Below are positions 23,191 through 41,478 of a stretch of DNA of 64,000 nt, in pieces. Origin of the DNA: Syntrophales bacterium (GTDB lineage: Bacteria; Desulfobacterota; Syntrophia; Syntrophales; UBA2210); assembly GCA_963662405.2 (NCBI GenBank), contig CAXXKT010000001.1, forward strand, positions 96,001-160,000, given 5' to 3'. Position 1 is the stretch's first letter; each line of letters starts with the position of its first letter. The position numbers and the translations under genes are program-made. Below the pieces are notes generated by a model. That model did no database searches. It was given only the letters and a program-made list of their open reading frames with translations, and was not told the DNA's origin.

Positions 23191-23267
<77 letters not shown>

Positions 23268-23281
23268 TTAAAATTAAGGGG

Positions 23282-24604: not shown

Positions 24605-24778
24605 ATGGCTACCGACAAACCGAAAGTCATTCTTGTCATGGAAGATGATCTCATCACCCGAATTGATGATTTCCGCTATGAGAACCGCATCCCTTCACGT
24701 GCCGAAGCCATCCGGCGGCTCATTACAGAATCTCTTGAAAGGTACCAAGGGCAACCTCAAAAGAAGTCAACCGAATAA
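24605..24778 (+). CDS. Ribbon-helix-helix (CopG-like) regulator
   Basis: 'IDDFRYENRIPSRAEAIRRLI'. Confidence 0.75.
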   Translation: MATDKPKVILVMEDDLITRIDDFRYENRIPSRAEAIRRLITESLERYQGQPQKKSTE

Positions 24779-24811
24779 AGACACCGCGTAGTGAAGTAAA
24801 CAGGAAAGAAG

Positions 24812-25648: not shown

Positions 25649-25804
25649 TGATCTGTTCACTACCAGTTAAACAGTCGGAAGCCCCAGGCTGAGGGGGGAA
25701 ACCCTGGAGTCCGGGGCTTCGTCAGAGGAATCGGGTCTAAGACGTATCAGGCAAACGACCCGATCAAATTTTACTCCTCTCACCCACGAAATCAAGGATT
25801 TTCT

Positions 25805-26041
25805 ATGCCCGATAAAACAGCCCATATGCTGCAGAAGACCTTGGGCGTCCTAGGCAAGCTGCAAAGCATGAAAGGTGAAGATTTCACGGAAGGAATGAAA
25901 GAGTATCTTCAGCTTGTGGATGAGTTCTATCAAGAGAACGAACATCTCATGGCTCGCCAACAATATAAAGCTGCACAAACAGATCCCGAGTACTTCTTGA
26001 GGCTCCTGGTATTAGCAGAGGCTATCCACAAGGATGAGTGA
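25805..26041 (+). CDS. Hypothetical protein
   Basis: 78-aa ORF with AAGGA upstream; no recognised motif. Confidence 0.5.
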   Translation: MPDKTAHMLQKTLGVLGKLQSMKGEDFTEGMKEYLQLVDEFYQENEHLMARQQYKAAQTDPEYFLRLLVLAEAIHKDE

Positions 26042-26263
26042 AAACGAAGATTGGTCCCTTCACCTACTACTCCTCAAAATAATTTCAGGAAAAAATTGAG
26101 TATTACTTATTGAAATCTTCAGCTTATATACTTCTTGACATAATATTTCGACGGAGCTAAACACATCGTACGTTCTTGGGTATATTAATTGTTAGCCATT
26201 CCCTTGTAAAATATGTATAAAACCAACAGCGGAAGATAGGCGAAACTGAGAGGAAACGCCACT

Positions 26264-27451
26264 ATGCCAAAGCAAGCTAATCAACTTCACAATCAAAACG
26301 AAGAGAAAGAAAAACGGGCGGCAGAGTTAGTCCTTGCCAACCAAGAGCTTGCCCATCAAAATAAATTGAAAGAAAAACGGGCAGCAGAGTTAGTCCTTGC
26401 CAATAAAGAGCTTGCCCATCAAAACGAAGAGAAAGAAAAACGAGCGGCAGAGTTAGTCCTTGCCAACGAAGAACTTTTCTACCAAAACGAAGAGAAAGAA
26501 AAACGGGCGGCAGAGTTAGTCCTTGCCAATAAAGCGCTTGCCCATCAAAACGAAGAGAAAGAAAAACGGGCGGCAGAGTTAGTCCTTGCCAACCAAGAGC
26601 TTGCCCATCAAAATAAATTGAAAGAAAAACGGGCAGCAGAGTTAGTCCTTGCCAATAAAGAGCTTGCCCATCAAAACGAAGAGAAAGAAAAACGAGCGGC
26701 AGAGTTAGTCCTTGCCAACGAAGAACTTTTCTACCAAAACGAAGAGAAAGAAAAACGGGCGGCAGAGTTAGTCCTTGCCAACCAAGAGCTTGCCCATCAA
26801 AATAAATTGAAAGAAAAACGGGCAATCGAACTCTCCAGCCTTTTGGGTGAATTAAAACACGCCAACGCACAACTGTTTGCGGCTTATGAATCCACCATTG
26901 AAGGCTGGTCACATGCGCTGGATTTGCGCGACAAAGAAACCGAAGGTCACACCCAACGCGTGACTGAAATGACATTGAAACTTGCACGCGTGGCGGGAGT
27001 TACCGAAGAAGAGTTGGTACACGTGCGGCGCGGAGCGCTTTTGCATGACATCGGCAAGATGGGAGTACCTGACCACATTCTTCTTAAGCCAGACAAACTG
27101 ACAGATGAAGAATGGGTTGTCATGCGTAAGCATCCCACTTTTGCCTATGAACTACTTTTGCCAATCGCTTATTTACGTAATGCGCTTGATATTCCTTATT
27201 GTCATCACGAAAAATGGGACGGGAGCGGTTATCCACGCAGGTTGAAAGGCGAGCAAATTCCATTTTCGGCGCGTCTCTTTGCGATAATAGATGTGTGGGA
27301 CGCTCTCCGCTCTTATCGTCCGTATCGACAAAGGTGGACAAAGGAGAAAGTAATTGAACATATCAAATCGCTTTCTGGAACGCACTTTGAGCCGAAGGTA
27401 GTGGAATTGTTTTTGAATATGGTGAATGAAGATGAAAAAAACACGGGCTAA
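26264..27451 (+). CDS. HD-GYP phosphodiesterase with N-terminal 21-aa coiled-coil repeats (gene cassette)
   Basis: 'ETEGHTQRV', 'LLHDIGKMG', 'HHEKWDGSGYP', 'DVWDAL...RPY'. Confidence 0.92.
   Translation: MPKQANQLHNQNEEKEKRAAELVLANQELAHQNKLKEKRAAELVLANKELAHQNEEKEKRAAELVLANEELFYQNEEKEKRAAELVLANKALAHQNEEKEKRAAELVLANQELAHQNKLKEKRAAELVLANKELAHQNEEKEKRAAELVLANEELFYQNEEKEKRAAELVLANQELAHQNKLKEKRAIELSSLLGELKHANAQLFAAYESTIEGWSHALDLRDKETEGHTQRVTEMTLKLARVAGVTEEELVHVRRGALLHDIGKMGVPDHILLKPDKLTDEEWVVMRKHPTFAYELLLPIAYLRNALDIPYCHHEKWDGSGYPRRLKGEQIPFSARLFAIIDVWDALRSYRPYRQRWTKEKVIEHIKSLSGTHFEPKVVELFLNMVNEDEKNTG
26297..26826 (+). repeat. 63-bp coding tandem repeat, 8 full units plus a partial
   Basis: NEEKEKRAAELVLAN(Q/K/E)EL(AH/FY)Q repeated, near-identical DNA. 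Confidence 0.95.
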
Positions 27452-27502
27452 CAAACGGATGGAGCCGACTCCTTACAGTCGCGGCTTATCCACTCGTTAC
27501 CA
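27446..27502 (+). other. attC site of HD-GYP cassette
   Basis: GGCTAAC...GGATGGAGCCG-ACT..AGT-CGCGGCTTATCC...GTTACCA hairpin; GGCTAAC is the exact complement of GTTAGCC at 26191 upstream of the gene. Confidence 0.8.
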
Positions 27503-27835
27503 ATTGTAGTCTACGATGAACAGGCCGATTCAAGTTTTGTTTGTTTCAGGAAGAAAATTTCAGCATAAATCAATTGATTCGGAATATAGTGTATTTGCCA
27601 ACTTCCGGTTAGGCTCCCTACCGCCCGTAGACGGGCACCCTGTTTCATCCCTCCGTTACCGGATTTGTTGTCTTGAGTGACTTATCCCCTCTTCCGGTGA
27701 GAGATTAGCACACCGCCCTTTCGGGTATTCAATTTTCAACGATCAAATACGTCCACCTATACAAACATACCAACCTCAAAAAAACATGCCTTGGGGAACC
27801 CCTGAGAGTACCTTGAGAGACCCCTGAGACTATAT

Positions 27836-28060
27836 TCAGTTGTCGGACTCTTGACCCCTTTGATACCTTCCCCAAAGGTACGCAATCACATCACCCTCAA
27901 AGAAATATCTCCGGCCTGATTTTTCGACATACTTCAGGCCCCCACGTATCCAGTTTGACAACTGTCTGCTACGCCCGGACCCGGTAACGGGTAAGTCTAA
28001 CCTCACGGCCAGGTCTTTTTCGCTCCAAACTTCGTTTATTGTCTTTGGCATCTCTGTCAT
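27836..28060 (-). CDS. Small putative HTH DNA-binding protein
   Basis: GGAGGTGA RBS; 'DLAVRLDL...RQLSNWIRGGLKY...GRRYF' excisionase-like pattern. Confidence 0.6.
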   Translation of the reverse strand: MTEMPKTINEVWSEKDLAVRLDLPVTGSGRSRQLSNWIRGGLKYVEKSGRRYFFEGDVIAYLWGRYQRGQESDN

Positions 28061-28262
28061 TAGTGTTCACCTCCATCATGAAAGATTGAATTGCTCTCGC
28101 TTTGTCCTGGTATCCCTTCTCAATGGCCAGGGCATATGCCTTTTGAAGATTCTCCTGTGATTCGTTCAAAAGTAACTGGACACAGGAAGCGCAGATATAA
28201 GCCCCCGCCGTTTCCTCTACTTTTTCAACATCTCTTTCAGTGTTGCAAAGACTACAAATCAT
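27969..28262 (-). CDS. Small CxxC-CxxC zinc-finger protein
   Basis: AAGGAG RBS; 'CSLC...YICASCVQLL'. Confidence 0.55.
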   Translation of the reverse strand: MICSLCNTERDVEKVEETAGAYICASCVQLLLNESQENLQKAYALAIEKGYQDKARAIQSFMMEVNTNDRDAKDNKRSLERKRPGREVRLTRYRVRA

Positions 28263-29002
28263 GGTTCTCCTTTTTTCCCCATTTTTCACCCCACCACGAT
28301 GACTTTTTCGGGATCACTACCCGAGGGGAAGAGTTTTCTGAAATCACTACGCGAGTGAAAAGTTTTAATTTGCGATTTTGCGCGCCGAGGAACCAACCCG
28401 GTTTATCTTTAAGCCCCTGTAGAGATATAAGGACCCCCTCTATTTTTGAGTTCCGGTGTTACGGGAATATAGACTTATCAATACTCTCCCCGGCTCCGGC
28501 TCCCCTCTCCCCCCCCTTATTGTGCGATTTGATGCGATTCATAATATCCTGTGGCGTTCCATATACGGTGCGCTGTGCTGCAATACGTTCCTCTTGCTTC
28601 CTGTAGCGTGTGTGTCGCTCATATACCCCTTTATCATGGTGCCCTGGGGTTCTATTGCTGGTGCGTCTTTGTGCGTCTTTCTGCGGCTATGTGTCGCGTG
28701 CATAAAAATTGACGGTGCGTGACAGAGGTAGGTCACTCTCTCTATCAAATTCACCTTCACCCCCCCTTTGACGACTGTGGGGGGTAGGGGCATTCCATCT
28801 TGTATTTTCATGTTTTTGTATCGCTGCCTTCATCCCCTCTGGTCTCTCCCCTCTATGGTGTGCCTTGTCATTGCAGGACCTTTTCCGTCACAATTGAGTA
28901 GCTTTGCGTCATCGTTTTCGGACACGATAAAAAGAGTTTCCCGCCACGATACCGCGCGCGTACTATTTTCAATGTCAGGTTTTCTTAGGTTCTCGTAATC
29001 CA

Positions 29003-29245
29003 TCAATCAATCACCCGCTTGTTTTCTTCGATGAATCTTTCAATGTCCTGGGTGTCTATGTACTGTTTCCGTCCGCCGGGGAATTGAACAACCGGGATTA
29101 GCCCTTGCCATATCCTTTCCCTCATTGCCCAGGTGGTTAGCCCAAGGCATTCCGCCGCCTGTTTTAACGGTAAGAGACGGGGGGACTGTGGATTTGAAAT
29201 CCCCTGTTCCGGTTTCTTCTCTATTATTCCGCTACGTTCCGCCAT
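29003..29245 (-). CDS. Excisionase/HTH_17-like DNA-binding protein
   Basis: 'LLPLKQAAECLGLTTWAMRERIWQGLIPVVQ..GGRK.YID..DIERFIE'. Confidence 0.8.
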   Translation of the reverse strand: MAERSGIIEKKPEQGISNPQSPRLLPLKQAAECLGLTTWAMRERIWQGLIPVVQFPGGRKQYIDTQDIERFIEENKRVID

Positions 29246-29405
29246 GCTGTGCCCCCTTTGTGCCCGTGATTTGCCCTTTAATTCTGTTCATTCGTTATTT
29301 GTCGGAGATACTTTTCCGTCTCCTTCAATCTCATCATTGAGCACTCTTCTTGCCCAATTCATGACAACCCCCGCATACCCCTCTTACTGACATAGTTATA
29401 AACTC

Positions 29406-29595
29406 TTCGTGTTTCCGAAACCCGAGCGCACAAAAATATTGAAACAGGCATTTTCTCGTTTACCGCGTTGTTATGATTAGCAAAGCAGTCTCTTTTTCGT
29501 CTTTGTTGCTTCTTCATGTTTCCGAAACCCTACCCCTCTGCAACCTGTTTCATACCTTCGTGTTTCCGAAGTGACTCGCTTCGGGTTTCCGAAGT
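29406..29595. repeat. Four iteron-like direct repeats TTCRKGTTTCCGAA
   Basis: Copies starting at 29406, 29513, 29557, 29580 at the 3' end of the Rep-like gene. Confidence 0.7.
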
Positions 29596-30061
29596 TACTT
29601 TTATTTTGTGCATGTGGCTTTTCACGTCATGTCCACGTGGGAGAGACCGCTTCTTTTCGACTTTTTTAAATTTCTCTGTTCCGTAATCTCTCCATCGTTC
29701 CGATATTGCATACATGGAATAATCATGGCCAAAGGTCCCTCCCTGGTGCTCGATCTCCACGAAGCCAACCTCAACAAGTTTCTTGATTGCCTCGTAAAAG
29801 GCTGTGGTCTTGATACCGAGCGCAGCCGCTTCAGCATAAGGAAATACGATATTATGGTTCTCATAGATTCTTTTTGAGCGTCCCCCTTGCTTGATGTTTG
29901 ACCAAGTCCTTTTTTGCAGTAACCTCAGCAAAACCCGGATAGCGGAAGCATTCAATTCCTTAAATGCCTGAGAAGCTAAGATTTCCCATTGGTCTTCCCC
30001 CGATTTAGTGGACATACCGAAGAGTTTCTCTTATAGACATAGAGTAACGAGGAGGCATGTC

Positions 30062-30364
30062 ATGGTTAATGGGAAGGATAAGCGGTATTTTGATCGGGAG
30101 TTTAAGTATGAGGCGATTCGGTTAATGGATGAAGGTAAACGTTCTGTAAGTGATCTAGCTAAGGATTTGAATGTTCATAAAAACCTGCTTCATCAGTGGA
30201 GGCGTAAATATCGGGCGGACATGGAGCAAGCTTTTCCCGGGAAAGGTCATTTGAAGGCACCTGAGGAGGAACTTCGTCGGTTGCGGCGGGAGAATGAGAG
30301 CTTAAGGGAGGAGAGGGAAATCTTAAAAAAAGCGTTGGCCATCTTCTCGAAACACCCAAAGTAA
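30062..30364 (+). CDS. IS3 OrfA (HTH + leucine zipper)
   Basis: 'FDREFKYEAI...DLAKDLNVH..LL..WR', 'EILKKALAIFS'; A7G slippery site at 30325-30332. Confidence 0.92.
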   Translation: MVNGKDKRYFDREFKYEAIRLMDEGKRSVSDLAKDLNVHKNLLHQWRRKYRADMEQAFPGKGHLKAPEEELRRLRRENESLREEREILKKALAIFSKHPK

Positions 30365-30375
30365 AGTATGAGTTC

Positions 30376-31224
30376 ATGGAAAATCACCGTTCCGAATTTT
30401 CGGTGAAGAAGATGTGCCGAGTGCTGGGGGTATCCAGGAGCGGTTATTACATATGGGGGAAACACAGCAAGAGTGACCGCCAGAGAGAGAATGAGCGGTT
30501 GCTGATGTATATTCGGGACGCTTTCATAAAGGGTCGCGGCACATATGGTAGCCCGAGGGTGACAGCGGAACTTCAGGCCCACGGGATTAAGTGTAGCAGG
30601 AAACGAGTGGCTCACCTGATGAAGAGTCATGGGATTAAGGCAAAGACGAAACGCAGGTTCAAGGCCACCAAAAAATCCAAGCATGAGTTTTTAGTGGCGG
30701 ATAATCTTTTAAATCGGAGATTTTCGACAGATGTGGCCAACAAGGTGTGGGTTTCTGATATTACCCTTATTTGGACGAGAGAGGGTTGGCTTTATCTGGC
30801 AGCGATCCTGGATGTTTTCAATCGTAAGATTATTGGATGGTCGATGGATAACAGATTGAGTCATAAGATTCTTGCAGATGCCTTGCACAAGGCGATCAGG
30901 CAGCGGCGACCCAAAGCTGGTGTTATGTTTCATTCAGATCGTGGAACTCAATATACCAGCTATGCTTTTCAGGGGCTGATGGAGAAATATGGTTTTATTC
31001 AGAGCATGAACTCTTCGGGGAATTGTTACGACAATGCTCTTATGGAATCGTTTTTCCATACCTTAAAGACGGAGCTTGTTTATTTTGAGAAGTATCAGAC
31101 AAGACAGGAAGCTCGCGGGAGCATATTCGAATATATCGAAGTTTTCTATAATTGCGTTAGAAGACATTCATCATTGAATTATTGCTCTCCCGCTGAGTTT
31201 GAACGAAAAGCGTGTGTAACTTAG
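30376..31224 (+). CDS. IS3 OrfB DDE transposase (-1 frame to OrfA)
   Basis: 'WVSDIT', 'FHSDRGTQY', 'DNALMESFF'. Confidence 0.94.
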   Translation: MENHRSEFSVKKMCRVLGVSRSGYYIWGKHSKSDRQRENERLLMYIRDAFIKGRGTYGSPRVTAELQAHGIKCSRKRVAHLMKSHGIKAKTKRRFKATKKSKHEFLVADNLLNRRFSTDVANKVWVSDITLIWTREGWLYLAAILDVFNRKIIGWSMDNRLSHKILADALHKAIRQRRPKAGVMFHSDRGTQYTSYAFQGLMEKYGFIQSMNSSGNCYDNALMESFFHTLKTELVYFEKYQTRQEARGSIFEYIEVFYNCVRRHSSLNYCSPAEFERKACVT

Positions 31225-31595
31225 TGGGGTGTCCACTTTTTCGGGGCAAGATCACATGATATGTATACGTTACGTCTAAGCTGGTATTTGTGTTGTTTCC
31301 CTCTCATTAAGCGCCTCCTGGAGCGCGTACCCTGGTTATATGATTCCGGGGAAGGTGGAGGCCAGGACTCCCCACTCTTCGGATACAATCCTATCCCCGG
31401 AAAGCGTTATTTGTTGTAGCTGTGCCATGTGTGTTCTTTTCATTAGACCCCTTTTTGTTTACCTCCCTGCCTCATTTAATCGCAGGTGGGAACATCAAAA
31501 ATAAAAAAGCCATGAATGACCCGGTTTAAGGGCCTCTCATGGCTTGCTTGCTTTGCAAGTTTTTGTTGCTTGCTTTTAGGCTGGCTTGCCTTTAT

Positions 31596-31772
31596 CTATA
31601 TATTTAAAGCCAATTTATCACTCTGGGTTTTAACAAGACGGTATTTTTTTATTTCAATATTTCCGTCCTTGATAATTAAATCCCGTGGGAACTTCCCTTT
31701 ACGATCCACAATGATTTGTTCTTGGTTAATAGATTCAATTGTTTTTATACGTGTGACGTCCCCTTCCTTCAT
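31596..31772 (-). CDS. 58-aa protein ending in a HemP-like motif (below ORF-track cutoff)
   Basis: AAGGGAG RBS; MKEGDVTRIK...KKYRLVKTQSDKLALNI. Confidence 0.45.
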   Translation of the reverse strand: MKEGDVTRIKTIESINQEQIIVDRKGKFPRDLIIKDGNIEIKKYRLVKTQSDKLALNI

Positions 31773-32517
31773 TCTGTGGTCTCCCTTTCGCTAATATTAT
31801 TTATGTGAATCATTCTTGCGACTCTTTTAATTAATGACTTTGAGCACATAACCACCTTTGGCATCATAAAGCCGTTTCTGTATAATTTCTTTTGAGGGGG
31901 TATTGGCGCCGTCAAGAAAGCTTTTCTCTTTTTTCTTGACTTAGGGGCGACAGGAGATTTACATTAGGATCACAACTTGACGATATAAATCTATCGTCGC
32001 CCCGCCTGATGGTTTCTCTGCCAGGAGAGACCGTCGGGCTTTTTTTTACCCTCATTGTTGCCTTATCTTATTACAAATTCATAAATACTGAGAAGCAGTA
32101 ATTTAGGCTAAAAACTCAAACTGGGCTAATAAGCTAATATAACTATAGATATTTTTTTAATTTGTTGATAATCTTCCAAAGAATTCAGGGGAGTTCAAAG
32201 AAGAGAATCTCCCCCGGTTTATTGCTGTTTCCGATAATATTATATATATCAAGCACGTGGAGTCTATCCCCCATAATAAGTATTCTTGCATGTCTCCGCC
32301 CCCTTCGCGTCCCTGTAGGTAGGTGGGGGAAGACCGGGCAGGGTCCCCGGTTTTTCGGTAGCGAACCTATCCCCCTAAATTGTGCCTTTTCCTGTGCCCG
32401 TGAGGTCAAATTTTGCTGAATTTTACCGCATATTCCCCAACGTGAACAACAAAATAAACACCTAATCTTTCAAATAGTTGCCTTTTCCCTTGCGTTTTCC
32501 AACTTTCTTTTTTCGAA

Positions 32518-32563
32518 CTCCGGAGCCAAAGGCCCTGGGTTCGAGTCCCAGATCGCCTACCAT
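32518..32563 (+). repeat. attR: duplicated tRNA-Arg 3' end
   Basis: Identical to 23223-23268. Confidence 0.95.
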
Positions 32564-32737
32564 AAAAGTTATAAGGGGTTATAGCTGTCCTATAACCCCT
32601 TATAACAACCATCTTTCATTTTACCCCACACCCTACCCCACACGGGAAGATGAATTTGGTCCTTTTCAGGCAATATGGGCGAAATATTTGTTGGGGTGGA
32701 TGTTGATATATACTTGAAGGAATATCGTTGTTTCTTC

Positions 32738-34175
32738 CTCCTACCATGAATTTATATAGAGTGGTGTATAATCGATTAGTCGATGTTCATGGGAAGGCGG
32801 GAGGACTCAGTGCTTCCTGGGCGTTAGAGCCCTCATTTCAGTATGTCCCAAGCCTCTGTGAACCATAATAGGTTGGTTGGATCATTGAATCCTTGTCACG
32901 CTGGAGGATTGGTCTGGAGGCTATGGTTCCTGCTTTTCCTTTCATTCGTTAGGAGGTGAAGCGATGTCAGGATTAACGGACAGCTTTAATGATTTTGTTG
33001 GAATAGATGTTTCCAAAGATAAATTCGACGCCTGCGGAATCACAAGAGATGCAGCACAGCTCTTCCAGTTTTCCGCGAGCATGGATCGTAAGGGCTTCGA
33101 TAAGTTGAGGGAACATCTTGCTTCTGTTTCCATTTCGTCCGTTTTAATCGGGATGGAATCAACAGCATCTTATCATATCAATCTTTTCTCGTACTTGATT
33201 TCAGAGGGTTACCGAGTGATCATCATTAATCCTCTGCTGATTTCCAATTACGTGAAGATGCAGCTCCGGAAAACCAAGACAGATAAGAAGGATGCCGCTG
33301 TTATTGCCATGTTTCTTCTTGCACACAGAAATACCCTGAGCCAACGATCATATTCTCCTTTGATTTCCGAGCTTCGGGATCTTTCACGTCAGCGGGAGAA
33401 TCTGGTTGATGAGATGACCGCTCTGAAGATCAACATCAAACGGCTCCTGAATATCACTTTTCCGGAATTGGAGCATATGACGTTGGTCTTTACGAAGTCT
33501 ATGCTGAAGCTTCTCCAGCAATACCCATCTGCTGTTGCTCTGAGAAGTGCGGATCCTATTCAATTGTCCCAGACGCTCATTGCAGATTCCTATGGGCACA
33601 AAAGAGAAGCATTTACCGCGGAGTTAATGAAGGCAGCTAGAGCGTCGGTCGGTACCCACAGTGCTGCGAAGGAAGTCATTCTTAAACAACAGGTGACCTT
33701 GCTCCTTCACTTTGAAGAGGACCTGCAAGAGATAACCGGCATATTAATTGAGATGAGCCGAAATCTGATGGAAGAAGACATAAACATTCTGACTTCCATA
33801 AAGGGCATTGGTAACAAAACTGCTGTTAATTTTCTCATTGAGATGGGGGGCGACATCAATCAGTATGATGATTCCGGGAAGATCATTGCCATGGCGGGCT
33901 TAGATCCGGCTGTTTACCAGTCAGGCAAACATGAAGGTAAAGGCAAGATCACGAAACGAGGGAACCGCCATTTACGGAGAGTCATCTGGATGATGGCAAC
34001 CAGGGTGATCAACTATAGCGATGTTTTCAAGACTTACTACCTCAAACGTAGAAAGGAGGGATTGCCGTATAAGATGGCAGTATTGGCCACCGCTCACAAA
34101 TTGATCCGTGTCATCTATGCCATGCTGACGCAACGGACAACTTTCTGCCCACAGATAAATTCATGATAGTTGACT
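32738..34175 (+). mobile_element. IS110-family element (copy A)
   Basis: CT core at 32738-39 and 34174-75; sub-terminal IR CATGAATTTAT (32745) / ATAAATTCATG (34155); ~220-bp left non-coding end. Confidence 0.85.
32964..34166 (+). CDS. IS110-family DEDD recombinase/transposase
   Basis: 'VGIDVSK', 'MESTASY', 'KTDKKDA', 'SIKGIG', 'AGLDP..YQSG', 'KRGNRHLR'. Confidence 0.95.
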   Translation: MSGLTDSFNDFVGIDVSKDKFDACGITRDAAQLFQFSASMDRKGFDKLREHLASVSISSVLIGMESTASYHINLFSYLISEGYRVIIINPLLISNYVKMQLRKTKTDKKDAAVIAMFLLAHRNTLSQRSYSPLISELRDLSRQRENLVDEMTALKINIKRLLNITFPELEHMTLVFTKSMLKLLQQYPSAVALRSADPIQLSQTLIADSYGHKREAFTAELMKAARASVGTHSAAKEVILKQQVTLLLHFEEDLQEITGILIEMSRNLMEEDINILTSIKGIGNKTAVNFLIEMGGDINQYDDSGKIIAMAGLDPAVYQSGKHEGKGKITKRGNRHLRRVIWMMATRVINYSDVFKTYYLKRRKEGLPYKMAVLATAHKLIRVIYAMLTQRTTFCPQINS

Positions 34176-34227
34176 GAAAGAGATGGGATCAAGAGTGAAG
34201 AAAAAGTGGAGGATTTCTTTCCGTATT

Positions 34228-34283
34228 CATTAACACAGAGTTCACCGGGGCGCTTACGCATCCGGTGAAACAACTTGTTCAGC
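34228..34283 (-). other. attC site ending array-1 cassette
   Basis: Minus strand GCTGAAC...GTTTCACCGG-ATGCGTAAGCGC-CCCGGTGAAC...GTTAATG; R'' nearly complementary to GTTCGGC at cassette start (35245-35251). Confidence 0.75.
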
Positions 34284-34613
34284 ATTCGTGCTTTTAGACT
34301 CCGGGAGTGTGCCGGTTTTTAGTCGATACTCGTAGGTCTGTTCCTTTTTGCATCGGTTTACGATGGTTGTCTCATTAACGGGTGCTCCCATTGTCCAGTA
34401 GACTATTTCGTCTTCATCGAAATACGTAATACGTTTCTTGTAAAAGTGCCCCTCGTATCCGTATGATCTGATATGCCCGACAAGCTGAATAAATAATTCT
34501 TCGTCAAGGCGGTCACGTACAATATACTCGTGTGGCCAAGTAGGCGCATAGGTCTTGGCAAACGTCCACTTCTGCTCTGTGATAAAAGCTTTGAGGTTGG
34601 TGGGAAGCTTCAT
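34254..34613 (-). CDS. Hypothetical protein (cassette gene)
   Basis: 'WTFAKTYAPTWPHEYIVRD...YWTMG'; stop lies inside the attC. Confidence 0.7.
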   Translation of the reverse strand: MKLPTNLKAFITEQKWTFAKTYAPTWPHEYIVRDRLDEELFIQLVGHIRSYGYEGHFYKKRITYFDEDEIVYWTMGAPVNETTIVNRCKKEQTYEYRLKTGTLPESKSTNAEQVVSPDA

Positions 34614-34647
34614 CGTCTCATTCCTGTTCGGTGTCCCGGATGGCCTT

Positions 34648-35226
34648 TCAATATGGGATTCGTTCGTCCAGCCCGCGAATTGTCTCAGGTGCTGCAATAA
34701 CGAGTTGTCCGCGATTCTTCTCGCTCTTGGTTCCGATATGATTGTCAGCCGGATATAGCGCCGTGTCTACAGGATGGTTGTTCCTCAGATTCCAACCGAT
34801 GCACCCTTCAATGTGTTTTCGCAATTGAGGGTCAACCTCTACTGGGGCAAAGAAGATGTTTAGAACGGACACATATTTGATGACTGAACCATGGATGGTC
34901 TCGTATGCGTCAATCTGCTTATGCGGTCCATCTGGTGATTTGTCTCTCCACAGCCCCGGCCAAATGAGTTCGCAGATGCCTTGTTGCGCCTTGTCGGGAT
35001 CGAATATACCATAGTTGAGTCCGAGGATATGGATGAGGTGTTCCCGTTGTCGTTTTGCGAGAGACACCGTCTCTCCCACGTAGTGCACCATGTGTGTACG
35101 GTCAGCATGTTGCTGAATAGTCCATAGATATACTCCGGCAACACTGGCGCATGGTGCCGTGAAAACAGAATTATGACGATCCAGAAAGCTGAATGGCCCA
35201 GTAAAGTTTAGATTAAGCGTTTCCAT
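34648..35226 (-). CDS. GIY-YIG-like nuclease (cassette gene)
   Basis: 'GVYLWT...HYVGET...RQREH'. Confidence 0.6.
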   Translation of the reverse strand: METLNLNFTGPFSFLDRHNSVFTAPCASVAGVYLWTIQQHADRTHMVHYVGETVSLAKRQREHLIHILGLNYGIFDPDKAQQGICELIWPGLWRDKSPDGPHKQIDAYETIHGSVIKYVSVLNIFFAPVEVDPQLRKHIEGCIGWNLRNNHPVDTALYPADNHIGTKSEKNRGQLVIAAPETIRGLDERIPY

Positions 35227-35248
35227 GTGTTCCGTATCCTGGTTGCCG

Positions 35249-35281
35249 AACAATGTTTATATGGATCCTGATAAAAACCTA
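35249..35281 (-). other. attI-like site, copy 1
   Basis: Minus strand TAGGTTTTTATCAGGATCCATATAAACATTGTT directly abutting cassette start; 32/33 identical to 62267-62299. Confidence 0.65.
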
Positions 35282-35383
35282 TTTTCCTTCCTGCTATACG
35301 TACCAAAGTGGTGATTGCAACTGAGGTAATTTAGGTTCATCATCTGTCTGTATTTCTTATTGATTCAGGATAAGGAGGCAGAG

Positions 35384-36532
35384 ATGACCATGAAAGACGA
35401 TACTACACGGAAGGCAGCAATGTCTTCTGCAGTTACAGAACATCCCACCGCAACGACATCCTGGCATTACCAGACTCGTTTCCGTTTTTCATTACATCGT
35501 GATGGAAGTGTTGAGACACTCGCTACGATTTTGCAGCATCTTTCCCACATGGATCTTCCGGGCACGGATCATGTTGCGGCCTATCTGCGTTACCTGACCT
35601 ATCGTAACCGGCGCCCCCGGACGTTGACAAGTCGTTTTGGTTCCATAGTTTTGTTCCTCGCCATGGTGCGTGACAGCGGGAAGACACGTATTGAAGACGT
35701 TACCAGGAGAGATATTGAGTGCTTTATCGAGCACGAGCAGGACAGGGGCAATAAGATTACGACGATACGGACAAAGCTCGTCAATGTGCAAGCCTTTCTG
35801 CGCTATCTCGTGGAGGAGGAGATTGTTTCCCCGGATGTGTTTGGCAGGAGGATACGGTTGCAGCTGCCGGAGCGGCTGCCGAGGGCTATGGATCCTGACG
35901 ATCTACAGAAGCTGTTATCCGTGATTGACGATACCCGGGACCGAGCCATGATCATGGTACTGTTGAGGACGGGGATGCGCATCGGCGAGTTGCTCAATAC
36001 GAAGGTATCAGATGTCCACATCGGGGAACGGAGGATAGAGATTTACGAAGGCGAGAAGAACCGCCTGGGGCGCGTGGTGTATCTCAGTGACGATGCGATC
36101 CGTGCGCTCCGGAGGTGGTTGCAGGAGAGGAATCCCTGGGAGGCGTACCTTTTTTCCACTCATAGAAGCATATACCAGATGTCGTACAGCACCGCCCGTC
36201 TGATCTTCCATCGATATCTTGAGAAGGCGGGGTTACGTGACCGGGGCTATACGCTCCATACGCTTCGGCACACCTTTGCAACGGAGTTTCTCAACGCTGG
36301 CATGCGCCTGGAGTGTCTCCAGGTGCTGCTGGGTCACCGGAGTATCGAGGAGACCAGGCGCTATGCCAGGCTTACCGACAAGACCCGCGAGGAAGAGTAC
36401 TTTCGGGCCATGGCCCGGATAGAAGGGAGGGATAGTGATGGACATAACCAATGTCATCGTGAACTGGCGGCGGTTTCTGAAACGGAGAAACTGTTCGCCC
36501 AATACCGTGAAGAACTATCTGAATCTCATTAA
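35384..36532 (+). CDS. XerC/D-like tyrosine recombinase 1 (not IntI)
   Basis: SAM-like N domain; RTGMR, K, HTLRH, LGH, Y intact; no IntI-specific insertion. Confidence 0.92.
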   Translation: MTMKDDTTRKAAMSSAVTEHPTATTSWHYQTRFRFSLHRDGSVETLATILQHLSHMDLPGTDHVAAYLRYLTYRNRRPRTLTSRFGSIVLFLAMVRDSGKTRIEDVTRRDIECFIEHEQDRGNKITTIRTKLVNVQAFLRYLVEEEIVSPDVFGRRIRLQLPERLPRAMDPDDLQKLLSVIDDTRDRAMIMVLLRTGMRIGELLNTKVSDVHIGERRIEIYEGEKNRLGRVVYLSDDAIRALRRWLQERNPWEAYLFSTHRSIYQMSYSTARLIFHRYLEKAGLRDRGYTLHTLRHTFATEFLNAGMRLECLQVLLGHRSIEETRRYARLTDKTREEEYFRAMARIEGRDSDGHNQCHRELAAVSETEKLFAQYREELSESH

Positions 36533-37331
36533 ACACTTTGTTGTCTGGGCGGACGTGCCCGTTGAGGAGGTGACGCATGCAACGGTATCGCGCTACATAG
36601 AGTATCTGATGCAGAAGCGGCTATCGCCCAAGACCGTCAACTGTCATCTGAACGGTATTCGTCAGTTCTATCACTATCTGCGGGAAGAGGAAGGGATCGG
36701 TATTGTCAATCCCATCAGGAACAAACATACACAGAAGATGCCCCGACCCCTTCCCCGGCATTTACGAGACGAGCAGGTGGATCGTTTCTTTAACGTTGTG
36801 AATGGACACCGTGACCGTGCCATGTTCATGCTCATGCTCCGTTGCGGTCTCAGGGTGGAAGAGGTTGCCACCCTTGCCATCGGTGCCATAGACATCAAAC
36901 GCAGGGCTATCTTGATTGAGGACGGCAAGGGTGCAAAGGACCGGGTCGTGTATATGAGTAATGATGTGATTCAGTCACTGGCAGCCTATCTGAGAGTACG
37001 GCCGGCATCCCGGGCACGGAAGATCTTTCTGGCAGAGAAAGAGCCGTGCAGGGGCCAGCCCATCTCCATCCGCGGCATTCAACGGCGCATGGAACACTAT
37101 GCCCGCAAAGCGCGGATCAAAATGTCCTGTCATCATCTCCGGCATACGATGGCTACGCAGATGCTCAATGCCGATGCTGATCTGTGTACGATTCAGGATC
37201 TTCTCGGCCACAGCAATATAAAAACCACCCAGAGGTATTGCCGTGTATCGAACATGAAGGTTCAGAGAGATTACTTCAATGCCATGGAGGTCATTATGCA
37301 CCGAAGGGCCTGCAACCCACATAACACTTGA
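36435..37331 (+). CDS. XerC/D-like tyrosine recombinase 2 (not IntI)
   Basis: RCGLR, GKGAKDR, HHLRH, LGH, TTQRY; overlaps recombinase 1 by ~98 bp. Confidence 0.92.
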   Translation: MMDITNVIVNWRRFLKRRNCSPNTVKNYLNLIKHFVVWADVPVEEVTHATVSRYIEYLMQKRLSPKTVNCHLNGIRQFYHYLREEEGIGIVNPIRNKHTQKMPRPLPRHLRDEQVDRFFNVVNGHRDRAMFMLMLRCGLRVEEVATLAIGAIDIKRRAILIEDGKGAKDRVVYMSNDVIQSLAAYLRVRPASRARKIFLAEKEPCRGQPISIRGIQRRMEHYARKARIKMSCHHLRHTMATQMLNADADLCTIQDLLGHSNIKTTQRYCRVSNMKVQRDYFNAMEVIMHRRACNPHNT

Positions 37332-37509
37332 CGGAACAGAGAATATGTGAAATGGTAAACAACAACTAACCGCATAGAATCAATAGGTAAATCAGACTAT
37401 AGTACGTATAGCTTCCTGTAGTTGAGAAAAACAAGGGTGAAGAAGAAGTAGAATATTTCTTCCTGCAATCATTAGGAAAATAGTCGCTGTTGTCACTATT
37501 TTTCAAGAC

Positions 37510-40500
37510 TTATACGGCGTTATTTTTGGACTTCAAGATAATAGTGTCTGTATAAGCTTTTTGAAAAAGGTCGCTTTCTGCCGTACCGCTTGTCAATCCC
37601 GATGCAAGATGATTGAAAATTCTTTTTTTAGACTCAATCTCATATTCAGCGATCATTTCTGCTAATAACGATTTCGATCTGTTTTCTATATCTCTGTCCA
37701 TATCAATCCCATAGGCAAATTCCACGACGTCTTTATATATACTCCAAGCTTGTGCCCAGTATTTTATATCTTCGTGGTCACGTCTTATTCTCTTTAAAAG
37801 TTCAAGAGATATAGACAGAAATGATCTCGCTAAGAAGTTAAGCTTGTCCCTTTCTGCTTTTTGAACGAACTGTATTTTTTTGAACCAAACATACCAAATA
37901 GCTGTAATTATATTTTGTTCAACTAATATGCCATCCTCTTTACTGATCATGTATGATAAAAATTGTCCAATCTCGGTCAATGCGTTTTTGTAATCCCCTT
38001 TAAACCACCAAATAGCATTTATGAATGAATTGAAGGCTTGGTGATTATTTAATATCTCCAAATAATTCTCTATGCTTCCCCCCGCCTCTGAAAGATCATC
38101 TTCGAGAACAATCAATATATCCTTATAGTTTATCGGCATTCCAACCACATTAAATGCGCATAGCTGGGCGAATTTCTCTGCGGCTTCTTTTTGAGTTATT
38201 ACCTTCTTTTCTTTTAATATCGTTATTATATCGATTGTAGATATAGTATCTTCATAATGATTCTTACCACAAACATAGAGCCTTGATATTGCATCATCTG
38301 TATAAAATATGGGTTTTAATGAGTCATAAACAGACTTTATTTTATCTAATTCACTGAAAATATTATTTTCATCTATTATATCTTTACTTGAAGGTTGTTG
38401 AATCTGTTCAACATATCTTGATAATAATTCAACTATATCTTTAGCTTTGGTTGCATAGGGGATAAAAACAAATTGTTGAGCCAACATCTGTAAGTTAGCG
38501 ATTGAGTCTTTTGCGATTGCAATTTTAGGAAATATATCAAAAATGTATTCTAATAATGCTAAGTCGAATAAAATCAACAAAGCCACATCATCAATAAGAG
38601 GCATTCGCCCTCTAAGGTTCTCTATTCTTCTTGGCACATAGGGCCCGGGGCTAATAGTCAGCTGATATTGCAGATCATCCTTTCCGGTTATCTTGGACAA
38701 CTCCCACAGGTGAATAAAGTTCGAAACGTTCAATAAAAAATGATGCCTGATTAAATAAGGAACAGGAAGCGTGCCGCTGCTTAAAAGATTTTCATTCCGC
38801 TGGTACCATTCCCTTTTTTCTTTTGTGAATCCTGTTATAGTTTCTAGTTGAGATAATAGATCTTCGTGCGATTTTTCTTTTACATGGAATGATCTTAAAA
38901 CTTTTGACTCTGGAAATCTCTCTGTATATTTCTTAAGCCGTTTTTGAAACTCTTGAACGTTCTCATCTTGAACCGTTTTTTCAGGATCAAGTGTTGCCAC
39001 AAAGAAATTTAACAAATAAAGTCCTTCTTCAGCTTCATCATTTTGGTCACACAATTGGCCATATTTTAAACATATATCAATCAACCTCTCACTCTTTGGA
39101 TTGATATACATTTCAATGTTAAACAACATCCTCAAAAAATGTACCTTCTGCTTTTGATAAGTTGCTTTCTCAAGAAGTCGGGTGACCAAGGTTTTGGCTT
39201 TTTCGATCAGACCACATCTTGCTGATATATTTATATAGATTTCAAGTGCAAACGGGTCATGTTTTTCTCCTTGTGAGATTTCTTCTAAAAGTGTTAATGA
39301 TTTTCCTGTTTCTCCAATTCCATCTAGTGCTAAAGCCTCAAATGCTTTAAACTGAGAGTTGGTTGAAAATCTGATTTGTGCCTTGCGGGATGTTGCTAAA
39401 ACGCCATGCCAGTCTTGGACTGTTACTTTAGCCTGACAAAGAATAGTGTATTCGCTGTCTAGTAAATCCCTCTCCGAAATGATATCAATCGAAATTTCAA
39501 TAATTTTTTGTGCTGCGGCGTTTTCATATGGGTTAAGGTTATTAAAAAGTTGAGCTAATAATTGATTGTGTTTGTGACCTTCTTTGTAAACATCATATAG
39601 TTTTTCAATTGCCTCAGGCTTTTTTAACGCTTCCTGATTTGCGTGCAAAATAAAATCATATACTGCGATCAATGACCTTGAATTAGGGACCGTTTGTAGT
39701 GCCTCAAGAAACTTGTCTCTTTCAGTATACTTCATGAGATCATTAGCGCATTCAGCTGCAATTGCGATAACGGTGTCATAGTTAGCGGGTTTTTCTTTGA
39801 TTAGATCGTCAAGTATTTCAATAGCTAATTTGACCACTTCCGCTTTATCGTTTTTCCAATAAGTTAAAATGATTTTATTGGCTTTATTGTTTAGTGTATT
39901 TGGTAGCTTACATAATTGCCGCTCTGCAATGGTTCGATCACTTGTATGCATTGCAACTTGAAACAAACTTTCCTGTACAATTTGAATGGATGGTCTGATG
40001 TCTGCCAATTTAACGAGGTGTTTTTTAACGATTTCTGGCTCATTAAAATACATGCCTAAAATAGAGAATATATCGATCATCGATTGAACGTCAGGGGGGT
40101 ACCCTAATTTATCAGCTAAATTCATCGCAGATATTAACTCTATCCATGCGTTCTTTAATATTTCCGGATTCATGTCAGGAGTGCCTGCGAAAGATATCGC
40201 TTTGTCATCAGGAGTTTTTCTGAATCCAAGATTGAAGTATGATCTGGCTTTTAATGATCTTAAACTTAGTTCTTGTCTATCAGTTAAATCTTGTTCTGAG
40301 AATGCTTTGTTGACTTGGTTTATACAGTCATTGTATGAGCCTGAAAGCAAATGTATAAGCGCTTTAAGGACGAAAATGTCTTGTTCGTCCTGGTTTTCTA
40401 AAATTTTAAAGGCTTCTTCATATCTTTCGTTTAAAGCCAGCAATTTTGACTTCAGCCGAAGGTAATCAAGATCATTCTTTTTTTCTATCTCTGATAAAAT

Positions 40501-41478
40501 GCCATCAATTGTTTTGTCGTCTTTCCTTTCATCCGGAATTCTCGATTCTAAATAGGCGAGATGATATTTTTGAAACTCCTTAGAAGTTAGATGGGCTTGC
40601 TTGTGTAAGTTGAGTGCTTCTTCACGTTTCCCAACAAGACTTGCCAAGTAGGCTCTTTGGTAATAGTATTCAGATTGTTCATGCTGACTTGCTTCTTCTA
40701 ATTGATCTGCTAATTTATCAAGCCTGTCTTGAGCTAGTATTGCGTTATTTAAAGATAGAATCTCGGAGACTTTTTTTAATTCATACGCAAAACTACCTTC
40801 TGGCGCATCTAACCAAGGTGTCTCAGTTTTGTTAAGGATTGTATCGAGAGCTACTTTATTGGTCCCAAAAATGCTTCCAATCTGATTAATCTTATTTATA
40901 GGATCAGAATATTTTTTCTCTACTATATCGTATATTCCTTCCAGAACCCTCTTTTTTTCTAAACGGTTGTTTAAGTATGGCAAAACGTTTAGACTTGAGT
41001 TTAAGACATTTTCGACAGGAATGTGAAATGTGTGTGTATCCTCGCCTAAATGATCGAGAGTTGGCTTTCCTGCTCGAAGCTGGTCAATTTTTTCATCCAT
41101 CCACAAATAGTAAGCTGTACACTTCCTAGGTTCTTCATCTTGGGTAAGATCCGCAAACACCAACATAACTGGGTTTTCGATTCTTATATAATAATTTAAA
41201 TTTCGAATGTCTAAAGGTTGAGAGAAATGTTTACCATCAGCACTGAGCCATTTATTTCTGCCATCCTTTATCTGTGCTGAACCCTTTATTTGAGCATTAA
41301 ACACGTTCTTATAATGCCCTTGTTCAACGATTTGCACTTGCATGTCTAAACCAGCATCAGCATCACCATCAGTCTGAGTTGGTCTCCATGACTTGGGATG
41401 ACAGCTGTTAAACGTCATAACTGCAAAATGCCCTATTTCTTGTGAAACAGATTCTTTTGGTAACTTAGTCTCTTTCAT
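37510..41478 (-). CDS. Large DUF4365-like nuclease + TPR-like + PIN-like protein (putative defence)
   Basis: 'DAGLDMQVQI...FNAQIKG' REase-type N-terminus; helical repeats; 'LIDDVALL...IFYTDD' PIN-like C-terminus; AT-rich. Confidence 0.7.
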   Translation of the reverse strand: MKETKLPKESVSQEIGHFAVMTFNSCHPKSWRPTQTDGDADAGLDMQVQIVEQGHYKNVFNAQIKGSAQIKDGRNKWLSADGKHFSQPLDIRNLNYYIRIENPVMLVFADLTQDEEPRKCTAYYLWMDEKIDQLRAGKPTLDHLGEDTHTFHIPVENVLNSSLNVLPYLNNRLEKKRVLEGIYDIVEKKYSDPINKINQIGSIFGTNKVALDTILNKTETPWLDAPEGSFAYELKKVSEILSLNNAILAQDRLDKLADQLEEASQHEQSEYYYQRAYLASLVGKREEALNLHKQAHLTSKEFQKYHLAYLESRIPDERKDDKTIDGILSEIEKKNDLDYLRLKSKLLALNERYEEAFKILENQDEQDIFVLKALIHLLSGSYNDCINQVNKAFSEQDLTDRQELSLRSLKARSYFNLGFRKTPDDKAISFAGTPDMNPEILKNAWIELISAMNLADKLGYPPDVQSMIDIFSILGMYFNEPEIVKKHLVKLADIRPSIQIVQESLFQVAMHTSDRTIAERQLCKLPNTLNNKANKIILTYWKNDKAEVVKLAIEILDDLIKEKPANYDTVIAIAAECANDLMKYTERDKFLEALQTVPNSRSLIAVYDFILHANQEALKKPEAIEKLYDVYKEGHKHNQLLAQLFNNLNPYENAAAQKIIEISIDIISERDLLDSEYTILCQAKVTVQDWHGVLATSRKAQIRFSTNSQFKAFEALALDGIGETGKSLTLLEEISQGEKHDPFALEIYINISARCGLIEKAKTLVTRLLEKATYQKQKVHFLRMLFNIEMYINPKSERLIDICLKYGQLCDQNDEAEEGLYLLNFFVATLDPEKTVQDENVQEFQKRLKKYTERFPESKVLRSFHVKEKSHEDLLSQLETITGFTKEKREWYQRNENLLSSGTLPVPYLIRHHFLLNVSNFIHLWELSKITGKDDLQYQLTISPGPYVPRRIENLRGRMPLIDDVALLILFDLALLEYIFDIFPKIAIAKDSIANLQMLAQQFVFIPYATKAKDIVELLSRYVEQIQQPSSKDIIDENNIFSELDKIKSVYDSLKPIFYTDDAISRLYVCGKNHYEDTISTIDIITILKEKKVITQKEAAEKFAQLCAFNVVGMPINYKDILIVLEDDLSEAGGSIENYLEILNNHQAFNSFINAIWWFKGDYKNALTEIGQFLSYMISKEDGILVEQNIITAIWYVWFKKIQFVQKAERDKLNFLARSFLSISLELLKRIRRDHEDIKYWAQAWSIYKDVVEFAYGIDMDRDIENRSKSLLAEMIAEYEIESKKRIFNHLASGLTSGTAESDLFQKAYTDTIILKSKNNAV

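Follow-up and report, generated by a model that had tools for sequence, protein, structure and literature searches.

The stretch of DNA analyzed here, referred to as the window, comprises 64,000 nucleotides of a Syntrophales bacterium genome (assembly GCA_963662405.2, contig CAXXKT010000001.1, positions 96,001 to 160,000 of the forward strand; G000:C1:96001-160000 in our genome coordinates). At positions 35287-37418 it holds a compact two-gene element, hereafter copy 1, which on direct reading of the + strand is bracketed by CTTCCTG + CTATACGTACC at the left and AGTACGTATAG + CTTCCTG at the right. The left 7-mer (35287-35293, attL, on the gene-A side) is preceded by TATTTTC and the right 7-mer (37412-37418, attR, on the gene-B side) is followed by TAGTTGAG. 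The terminal inverted repeats occupy 35294-35304 at the left, where the family consensus is CTATACGTAAC followed by AAAA, and 37401-37411 at the right. Further inside stands a second inverted pair on the + strand, GTCTGTATTTCTTATTGATTC at 35346-35366 and GAATCAATAGGTAAATCAGAC at 37377-37397, the left member of which is a candidate second protein-binding site. Only two open reading frames (ORFs) lie between the arms, both on the + strand. Gene A (35384-36532, with an alternative ORF opening at a TTG at 35360) encodes a 382-aa Xer-like tyrosine recombinase, and gene B (36438-37331) encodes a second one of 297 aa and overlaps the end of A by 95 nt. An Rfam scan gave no match inside the element.

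A preliminary description of this locus had reported a recombinase pair bounded by an 11-bp inverted repeat and a TTCCT duplication, written as TTCCT|GCTATACGTAC ... GTACGTATAGC|TTCCT at 35288-37417. That sequence is present as written. The inverted repeat is likewise 11 bp long, with arms complementary at 10 of 11 positions and an extension to 17 nt at 88%, but the 11th base counted in that description (G/C) belongs to the 7-mer CTTCCTG and not to the arm. It should be noted that 14 inverted pairs of at least 10 nt were listed in the 2.4-kb stretch around copy 1, so that an 11-bp repeat alone is not above chance; the terminal repeat counts as significant because it recurs in relatives, not because of its own rarity.

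Both proteins have the features of the simple, Xer-like tyrosine recombinase superfamily. They match Phage_integrase PF00589 in Pfam (E = 2e-37 for A and 1e-37 for B) as well as the SAM-like N-terminal/core-binding families PF02899/PF13495, and they are 31% identical to each other. The top structure matches by sequence for B are solved XerC-like, XerA, and XerD proteins. The best curated NCBIfam models for A and B are XerC/XerA/XerD, all with scores below the cut-off (B, 204.9 against 335 for XerC and 201.4 against 220 for XerA; A, 166.6 against 220). An assignment as chromosomal XerC/XerD/XerA equivalogs was rejected on these scores and because the genes are multi-copy and have end sites of their own. 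The catalytic R-K-H-R-H-Y set is complete in A and B of copy 1. Across the family described below, the box I R of A is kept in 35 of 36 proteins and the K, H, R, H, and Y in 36/36 each, while B has the full set in 38/38. Since the catalytic residues are kept in both proteins, A and B are probably active enzymes.

To collect relatives, an alignment of A was searched against one genome per prokaryote species, which returned 110 relatives, of which 78 loci were kept; together with the two copies in the window, 80 loci were examined. The genomes behind the 78 loci are labeled Desulfobacterota-type in 49 cases (Smithella, Syntrophales, Desulfobacterales, and so on) and Nitrospirota-type in 21. The remaining labels are Bacteroidota (2), Chloroflexota (2), unspecific Pseudomonadota/Proteobacteria (3), and archaeal (1, on a short contig). 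The closest relative, at 77%, is in a Syntrophaceae genome. The ends were sought as a TACGTA-centred 11-mer pair with up to two mismatches, spaced 1.8-4.2 kb apart. Such an inverted-repeat pair was found in 47 of the 80 loci, and 45 were retained after dropping L075, a false pair with neither A nor B inside, and L028, in which the left arm is doubtful. The 45 bounded elements stem from genomes labeled Desulfobacterota, Nitrospirota, Bacteroidota, and Chloroflexota, and every one of them consists of A followed by an overlapping B, with nothing else conserved between 11-bp arms and with a 7-mer abutting each end. The proteins range from 337 to 410 aa for A and from 294 to 376 aa for B, and there is no third conserved gene. 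The terminal inverted repeat has the consensus CTATACGTAAC, with end repeats of 11-15 bp across the family; the full left-end consensus is CTATACGTAACAAAAtgg and that of the right end, in inward reading, is CTATACGTAAcAaAa.Ctg.tTTTtCTatTGaT. Each end thus has a conserved inner motif, and tTTTtCTatTGaT is kept in the right ends of 36 non-redundant elements. Without nested insertions the elements measure 2043-2494 bp; in the larger ones there is a nested transposase, IS630-like or IS481-like (L030, L035), or else a TPR-like gene (L071/L076).

These results bear out the proposal that the module is a self-contained mobile element with the boundaries first drawn for it, as the same ends surround the same gene pair in 45 of the 80 loci. 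Ends defined from multiple copies have unchanged boundaries and are still flanked by the 7-mer, so that the refuting outcome named in the preliminary description (different boundaries or no core duplication) did not occur. The statement that the element differs from the three-gene RIT elements in having two genes holds in all 45 bounded elements. Among 72,556 plasmids there was no family member, the best match to A being 31% identical among 1974 records, and a viral contig collection contained none either (best match 36%). Full-text searches of the literature returned no description of a two-tyrosine-recombinase element of such design. Among the matches listed for the repeat 11-mers, there was only mouse genetics (several Cre mouse lines) and no bacterial element. 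The family is apparently widespread, cross-phylum, and undescribed.

A second copy begins at the right edge of the window. Its left 7-mer, CAAGGTG, lies at 63781-63787 on the + strand and is also the last 7 nt of a neighboring insertion sequence (IS) of the IS110 family; the left inverted repeat CTATACGTAAC follows at 63788-63798 and gene A starts from 63876. The part within the window (63788-64000, + strand) continues past its end to C1:161939, so that copy 2 as a whole is G000:C1:159788-161939. The related left end that had been noticed near 63787 (85% over 74 nt at 63786-63859) therefore opens a full second copy, which is 68% identical to copy 1 at the DNA level and has both genes intact (proteins 54% and 66% identical). 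The ends of copy 2 read CAAGGTG|CTATACGTAAC at the left and GTTACGTATAG|GTAGGTG at the right. In addition, a solo 47-bp right end of the copy-1 type (94% identical), followed by CTTCCTG, is found at G000:C2:407198-407244, just downstream of a 273-aa ORF and, as judged by eye, a putative IS3-type terminus. It resembles what would remain of a third copy after truncation by a putative IS3-type IS.

Evidence for movement comes from single genomes that hold near-identical copies (≥99.5%) in unrelated flanks. There are five such sets: L034-38 (n = 5), L021-23 (n = 3), L032-33 (n = 2), L072-74 (n = 3), and L071/76 (n = 2). In these sets the homology between copies stops at the arms and the 7-mer. The right flank of L036 is another repeat. 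One Nitrospiraceae genome, G041, has at least 12 copies of gene A in two subfamilies. Copy 1 itself was found at ∼98.5% identity with a different left flank in a sediment-metagenome run, X1. Regarding an orthologous empty site, the genes flanking copy 1 have no counterpart in 40 relatives, and copy 2 has an IS110-family element as its left flank, which leaves no orthologous empty site for it.

The 7-mers that abut the arms follow simple rules. The family yielded 44 unique sites, 42 of which could be scored, and at 27 of these the left and right 7-mers are identical throughout. Every site matches at positions 5, 6, and 7 (42/42 each), while positions 1-4 match at 32, 32, 31, and 36 of 42. Within the 15 imperfect sites, the matches at positions 1-4 fall to 5, 5, 4, and 9. 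As a control, 7-mers shifted 7 nt outward were compared, which gave at most 5/7 matches and mostly 0-2. The imperfect sites also have a direction. When sets are defined solely by the nucleotide identity of copies in one genome, the right 7-mer stays constant (5/5, 3/3, and 2/2) and the left one is unlike it in 4/5, 1/3, and 2/2 copies; the reverse is seen in no set. In L034-38 the right 7-mer is CAGGGTG five times, with CAGGGTG, GGAGGTG, CTTGGTG, CTTGGTG, and CAGAGTG at the left. In L021-23 it is GTAGGTG three times, with GTAGGTG twice and AGTAGTG once at the left, and in L032-33 it is GTGGCTG, with CTTCCTG at the left. A constant right 7-mer beside a variable left one marks the 7-mer as a crossover spacer carried by the element and not a target duplication. 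The TTCCT duplication of the preliminary description is accordingly such a 7-bp spacer and not a 5-bp duplication of the target. By the family pattern, the left CTTCCTG of copy 1 would be the target-derived copy and the right one the element-borne spacer, which here equals the 7-mer of the target.

The same arms are combined with at least 17 different spacers. One of them, GTAGGTG, is the right 7-mer at 9 loci in several genomes whose protein A is only ∼56-60% identical to that of the window. Two spacers are reverse complements of the two most frequent ones (CAGGAAG of CTTCCTG and CACCTAC of GTAGGTG, in L040 and L071/L076 as compared to copy 1 and L021), and the same target 7-mers are seemingly used in both orientations by different subfamilies. 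Outside the 7-mer, the only conserved flank signal is a weak palindrome, ATTn [7] nAAT. Among the 42 sites, -4 is A in 23, -3 is T in 22, and -2 is T in 31; on the other side, +2 is A in 32, +3 is A in 21, and +4 is T in 23. A paralogous empty site was found in G044, in which the occupied loci L073 and L074 have ∼50 nt of left flank in common as well as palindromic arms, ACTGGACAGTT [7] AATTGTCCAG. A paralogue of these sites that is unoccupied, with the same ∼50-nt left flank, reads ACTGGACAGTT TATTGTA GTGTCCAG and has a single 7-mer. In the second subfamily of G041, five copies (L124-L126, L128, and L129) have CATGTCG on both sides, and most of them share the flank TTCTGTCnCTTT [7] TAACCATCG; judging from this shared flank, the subfamily appears to sit in a local repeat or inside another repeated element.

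If the right arm, spacer, and left arm are joined, the result is GTTACGTATAG-N7-CTATACGTAAC, in which inverted arms surround a 7-bp center. This is a standard tyrosine-recombinase core site, and the idea that the ends serve site-specific recombination is in this respect upheld, because joining through one 7-mer produces the textbook arrangement. The joined sequence, with its 22 fixed bases, was found in 5 metagenome stretches. One of them, L101, runs from a unique flank through a full element (A 47% and B 54% identical to copy 1) to the joint and on to a restart of the element, and the spacer in the joint is the right-side 7-mer. Another, L100, consists of an element, a joint, and then the end of a different element. 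The other three, L097 and L098 (which have the same sequence) and L099, are joint-like sites with neither A nor B within 1-3 kb. They may represent remnants that abut each other or derivatives without genes; L097/L098 have two arms of right-end type (ATTAT...ATAAT). Since the 7-mers are asymmetric and in direct orientation, recombination between the ends would excise the element and not invert it. An invertible DNA switch was rejected for the same orientation of the 7-mers at both ends and for the presence of copies at unrelated loci. We infer a circular intermediate in the window's strain as well. The source-like runs X21 and X23 show the integrated form only, without joints, in assembled contigs; contigs drop rare forms, and thus the missing joints do not speak against excision.

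In a descriptive sense the element has the traits of an IS, as it is smaller than 2.5 kb, contains mobility genes only, has terminal inverted repeats, and occurs in several copies per genome. To our knowledge, a pair of tyrosine recombinases is not among the enzyme classes in IS catalogues. With the anatomy, the conservation of ends and genes, the copies at different sites, the 7-mer rules, and the head-to-tail joint all directly observed, we are rather confident that 35294-37411 is an intact, compact, IS-shaped transposable element with two overlapping tyrosine recombinases, which moves by way of a 7-bp spacer that it carries.

The site occupied by copy 1 is part of a repeat of the host genome. 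The host repeat unit is present in ∼15 copies in G000 (using a profile built from 7 units) and also matches in related genomes. An alignment of 11 units gives a left module of ∼62 nt starting from xxAGGTG, then CTTCCTG, and then a right module of ∼60 nt that ends in TCATTAAC. The left module opens with GTAGGTG in two unoccupied units. In the window, units were found at 37412-37479, 59383-59452, and 34174-34235. The first of these, on the + strand, is a right module that opens with CTTCCTG and is the landing site of copy 1, which thus sits at CTTCCTG of a unit with the right module only; for copy 2 the occupied position is xxAGGTG, in a full unit. The claim that copy 1 lies at the core of a repeat unit is therefore correct for G000, in that CTTCCTG opens a unit. 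The units share no sequence with the two-recombinase element, and they are host repeats that act as landing sites, neither part of the element nor defective elements; the suggestion that the module converts empty units into autonomous ones consequently falls away. Rfam gave the host unit only sub-threshold, terminator-driven hits and no known RNA family. A role as terminator or structured RNA was also considered and found no support in three folds (z-scores of -1.06, +0.28, and +1.31 versus shuffles).

The same unit also receives IS110-family elements. The first, at 32734-34180, encodes a 400-aa DEDD transposase (32964-34166) and has a 100% identical second copy at G000:C1:879589-881035. Elements of this type were found as four copies in three genomes, all of which start CTTCCTCCTACC. 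The right ends were compared in the two G000 copies only, both of which end TTGA-CT-GAAAG and are flanked as CTTC-CT[IS]CT-GAAAG, and the unit profile resumes at 34174 after the window copy. We consider it likely from this alignment that the insertion took place at CTTC-CT-GAAAG, inside CTTCCTG, with CTTCCTGAAAG, the opening of the unit, as the probable target. The preliminary description had placed the IS110 at the same TTCCT|G position as copy 1; after re-mapping, an insertion inside the same 7-mer is plausible, but the TTCCTG at 32814-32819 is internal to the IS110. The second IS110-family element, at 62340-63787, encodes a 322-aa transposase (62562-63530, minus strand), and its end, CAAGGTG, abuts the left arm of copy 2. 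It occurs at six places in G000 including its own, of which about four are full or nearly full copies (92-100% identical) and two are short fragments. In three units this type of element ends at xxAGGTG, the first 7-mer of the left module. The unit therefore hosts four elements of two unrelated kinds, namely IS110-family elements of two types and the two-recombinase element in two subfamilies.

The order of events at copy 2 can be read from the IS110-family copies. Four uninterrupted other copies of the 62340-63787 type end AACACAAGGTG (CAAGGTG) and continue with flanks of their own, without GTAGGTG. This indicates that the CAAGGTG of copy 2 was already in the target and that GTAGGTG was brought by the element. 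In our reading, the landing point of copy 1 was the CTTCCTG at the start of a host intergenic repeat and that of copy 2 was the tip of an IS110-family element.

Based on these end products, we propose the following route. The right end, spacer, and left end would be joined in a circular form into a core site of repeat, 7 bp, and repeat, and the circle could recombine with any target that has a similar 7-mer between the weak palindromic flanks ATTn [7] nAAT. The recombinase on the left arm would cut the strand that runs from the arm into the spacer. The freed strand would then pair with its partner over the adjacent 2-3 bases, which would be positions 5-7 and would have to match. Where positions 1-4 are mismatched, the second exchange would fail and the junction would be completed by replication. 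Replication of the recombinant strand would leave the target's 7-mer at the left and the element's 7-mer at the right, and this arrangement is what all imperfect sites show. In the reverse exchange, the right-side spacer would enter the circle and the target would be restored, such that the spacer would be retained through successive moves. For CTX phage and integron cassettes, exchange of a single strand followed by replication is the accepted route. That the right spacer enters the circle agrees with the constancy of the right 7-mer within genomes and its persistence among diverged elements, and we regard this spacer retention as probable. The order of strand exchange, the completion by replication, and a division of labor between A and B are inferred parts of this route. 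As for the two enzymes, our guess is an XerC/XerD-like split, with one enzyme per strand pair, or with one enzyme on the element arms and the other on the target arms or inner motifs.

Several observations weigh against this account. The single exchange, the replication, and the retention of the spacer are deduced from end products alone. In the assembled contigs of four metagenome runs, there was neither a circle nor an empty site for the copy-1 strain, and the joints in L100 and L101 could represent tandem copies instead of circles. The copy in run X1 departs from the window after 37415, 4 bases into the right 7-mer, in a 26-nt contig tip; its right 7-mer would be CTTCGCC as compared to CTTCCTG at the left, which would break the rule for positions 5-7, at what is a contig end. 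No repeat pair was found in 33 of the 80 loci, many of which are short or truncated contigs, and a promoter scan of the left end of copy 1 predicted none (4 sites versus 2.7 expected). For copy 2, the element may have come first, at a native GTAGGTG, followed by the IS110-family element; this reverse order is less likely because the IS110-family element would have picked a poorly matching target.

The most serious competing explanation concerns the fate of the spacer. In the turnover described for SE (strand-biased circularizing integrative) elements, said to have a 6-bp footprint in common with Tn554 (Idola et al. 2023, PMC10214605), the circle takes up the left, target-derived 7-mer at attL and leaves it at the right of the next site, so that the spacer is a footprint of the previous site. 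The placement upon insertion in our family is SE-like in that the element's spacer is at attR and the target's 7-mer is at attL. Turnover would require all derived copies in a set to come from one master, for which a possible single donor with a left 7-mer equal to the common right one does exist in L034 (CAGGGTG), L021/22 (GTAGGTG), and a partial copy in L131 (GTGGCTG). On the other hand, right 7-mers never equal the variant left ones (GGAGGTG, CTTGGTG, CAGAGTG, TCAGGTG, AGTAGTG, and CTTGCTG) in the same genomes, and the persistence of GTAGGTG across those 9 loci with such diverged A proteins is hard to square with a change of spacer at 15 of 42 insertions. We therefore consider turnover unlikely, albeit the strongest of the competitors. 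A conventional two-strand cut-and-paste reaction in the style of Tn916/CTnDOT would treat the mismatched spacers as heteroduplexes and the asymmetry as a matter of repair or sampling. Full two-strand recombination would work normally at the 27 of 42 sites with perfect 7-mers, and IntDOT is described as requiring homology only beside the first exchange site (PMC2817482). Replication of a heteroduplex, however, should put the element's 7-mer at the left about half the time, whereas the within-genome sets have it at the left in 0 copies and at the right in 7 imperfect ones, and none of the 15 imperfect sites has it at the left wherever the constant of the subfamily is recognizable. This makes the conventional reaction very improbable.

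A different question is whether the element is tied to the host unit, as the preliminary description had proposed with integration and excision at the unit core only. Copy 1 does sit exactly at the CTTCCTG that opens one of the ∼15 units, and with 968 occurrences of CTTCCTG in the genome, 83 of which have T at -2 and A at +2, a landing in a unit is not expected by chance. The copy 2 spacer GTAGGTG is likewise the native first 7-mer of the left module in the 2 unoccupied units, and other subfamilies are also found in local repeats (G044 and subfamily b of G041). Yet the solo right end at C2:407198-407244 is outside any unit, a profile search found a unit in the flanks of 0/4 CTTCCTG-type elements in other genomes (L009, L011, L014, and L015), and other subfamilies use at least 15 other 7-mers. 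Furthermore, the five near-identical G041 copies are at sites with different 7-mers and flanks, and what is conserved in the flanks is ATTn/nAAT and not the unit sequence. A module specific for the unit is for these reasons quite improbable. The most far-reaching interpretation is that of undescribed, cross-phylum, minimal two-recombinase insertion sequences in which a heritable spacer, with 3 obligatory bases and at least 17 variants, mainly sets the target, movement occurs by one-strand exchange and replication, and the host repeat in G000 is a shared landing pad, with two spacer types (CTTCCTG and GTAGGTG) and the two IS110-family elements directed to two fixed 7-mers within it. As a whole we put this forward tentatively, at a little under an even chance of being right in every part.

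Comparison with known systems places SE and Tn554 nearest in behavior and RIT nearest in form, and each of them fails on gene number or kind, end structure, and size. The SE elements SE-6283 and SE-6945 (PMC10214605) are similar in that they have a pair of tyrosine recombinases, terminal inverted repeats that are short and imperfect, and a short spacer in the joint of the circle. The spacer is likewise placed at the far end (attR) with target bases at the recombinase-proximal attL, and a strand-biased, copy-like movement has been inferred for them (same source). The differences, taken from the same text (PMC10214605), are that SE elements have four core genes (intA, tfp, intB, and srap), with one ordinary and one large recombinase, a median size of 15.7 kb, cargo, a 6-bp spacer, a distribution given as only Gammaproteobacteria, and 1-2 copies. 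The family described here has two ordinary Xer-like enzymes only, is ∼2.1 kb and mostly cargo-free, has a 7-bp spacer, spans several phyla, and reaches at least 12 copies. Judged by gene content, with just two genes between the ends, it does not belong to the SE elements. The spacer of the SE circle is reported to be taken from attL at excision (PMC10214605), whereas in the two-recombinase family it appears to be retained and not replaced at each move.

Tn554 also has two tyrosine recombinases, makes no true target duplication, and carries a short sequence from site to site, as related in PMC10214605 and PMC3414803. What sets it apart is a large TnpB, tnpC as a third gene, a single preferred site, and cargo genes for resistance. 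The Tn554 tnpB product is ∼600 aa. The family shares with Tn554 and SE the lack of a true duplication and the placement of the spacer at the far end, as the right 7-mer is invariant and positions 1-4 differ at 15/42 sites. A place in the Tn554 family, which is defined by tnpA, a large tnpB, and tnpC, was rejected given the protein lengths of 337-410 aa for A and 294-376 aa for B and the lack of a third gene. No Tn554-specific model was among the NCBIfam hits of A or B at E ≤ 1e-5.

RIT elements are likewise small and multi-copy, consist only of adjacent, overlapping Xer-like tyrosine recombinase genes, and have a mechanism stated to be unknown (PMC3414803). They differ in having three genes (ritA, ritB, and ritC), a size of ∼3.5 kb, and palindromic or repeated ends of 28-51 bp, according to PMC3414803 and PMC5737581. 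RIT membership was rejected because exactly A and B are present in 45/45 elements, the end repeats are 11-15 bp, and the additional genes are nested IS transposases or a TPR-like gene. The recombinases of pHG1, a plasmid that bears RIT, reach no more than 32% identity to B, and B is no closer to them than to A. The bipartite module (BIM) of Cupriavidus, described in PMC3414803 as one tyrosine recombinase with an SMC-domain protein, was rejected since both genes here are recombinases. CTnDOT/NBU elements resemble the family in that IntDOT needs homology only next to the first cleavage site and the remaining overlap may differ (PMC2817482). They are unlike it in relying on one integrase, which has an arm-binding domain and works with accessory proteins, and in being large conjugative or mobilizable elements. 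Finally, the XerC/XerD-dif system also has a paralogous recombinase pair acting on inverted arms around a 6-8 bp center; in the present family, however, the arms are symmetric and not of the XerC/XerD type, the genes occur in multiple copies and move together with their sites, and there is no host dif site.

If the proposed reading is true, these elements would be the simplest known strand-biased tyrosine-recombinase transposons. Tyrosine-recombinase transposons (Tn554, SE, GInt, and RIT) are poorly understood, as those available are few, large, host-restricted, or without defined ends. The ∼45 elements with exact ends, natural multi-copy sets, and two genes make it possible to test why two enzymes are needed, which strand is exchanged first, and how the spacer is carried or replaced. 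The combination of the same arms with many spacers, in which the spacer would largely pick the target, is of interest for a small retargetable integration tool. For annotation, the gene pairs are currently indistinguishable from xerC/xerD. The elements also fragment assemblies of Syntrophales, Nitrospirota, and Desulfobacterota, and many end matches are at contig ends.

The surroundings of copy 1 contain a 1322-aa protein with an N-terminal DUF4365 at the right (37510-41478, minus strand) and, at the left, ORFs 34254-34697 and 34648-35253, which have no Pfam match. As these three neighboring genes have no counterpart in 40 relatives, the region looks accessory and is possibly defense-type. A 31-nt motif, AACAATGTTTATCTGGATCCTGATAAAAACC, occurs in five copies, at 35249-35280 and 62267-62299 of the window and at C1:245908-245950, C1:1955903-1955934, and C2:54170-54201. 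The copy at 35249 is immediately upstream of where the minus-strand gene 34648-35253 starts. Several related genomes also have matches to the motif, which may act as a common promoter or leader. Farther to the left, a genomic island of ∼9.3 kb (23191-32571) is located at tRNA-Arg(CCG), the 3′ end of which is repeated over 54 nt at 32518-32571 (96%). The island also has an int-alpA RNA match at 32311-32377 and a putative integrase gene in the minus-strand ORF 23282-24376. At 26222-26914 there is also a tandem array with a 63-bp period and ∼8-11 units, which lies inside ORF 26264-27451.

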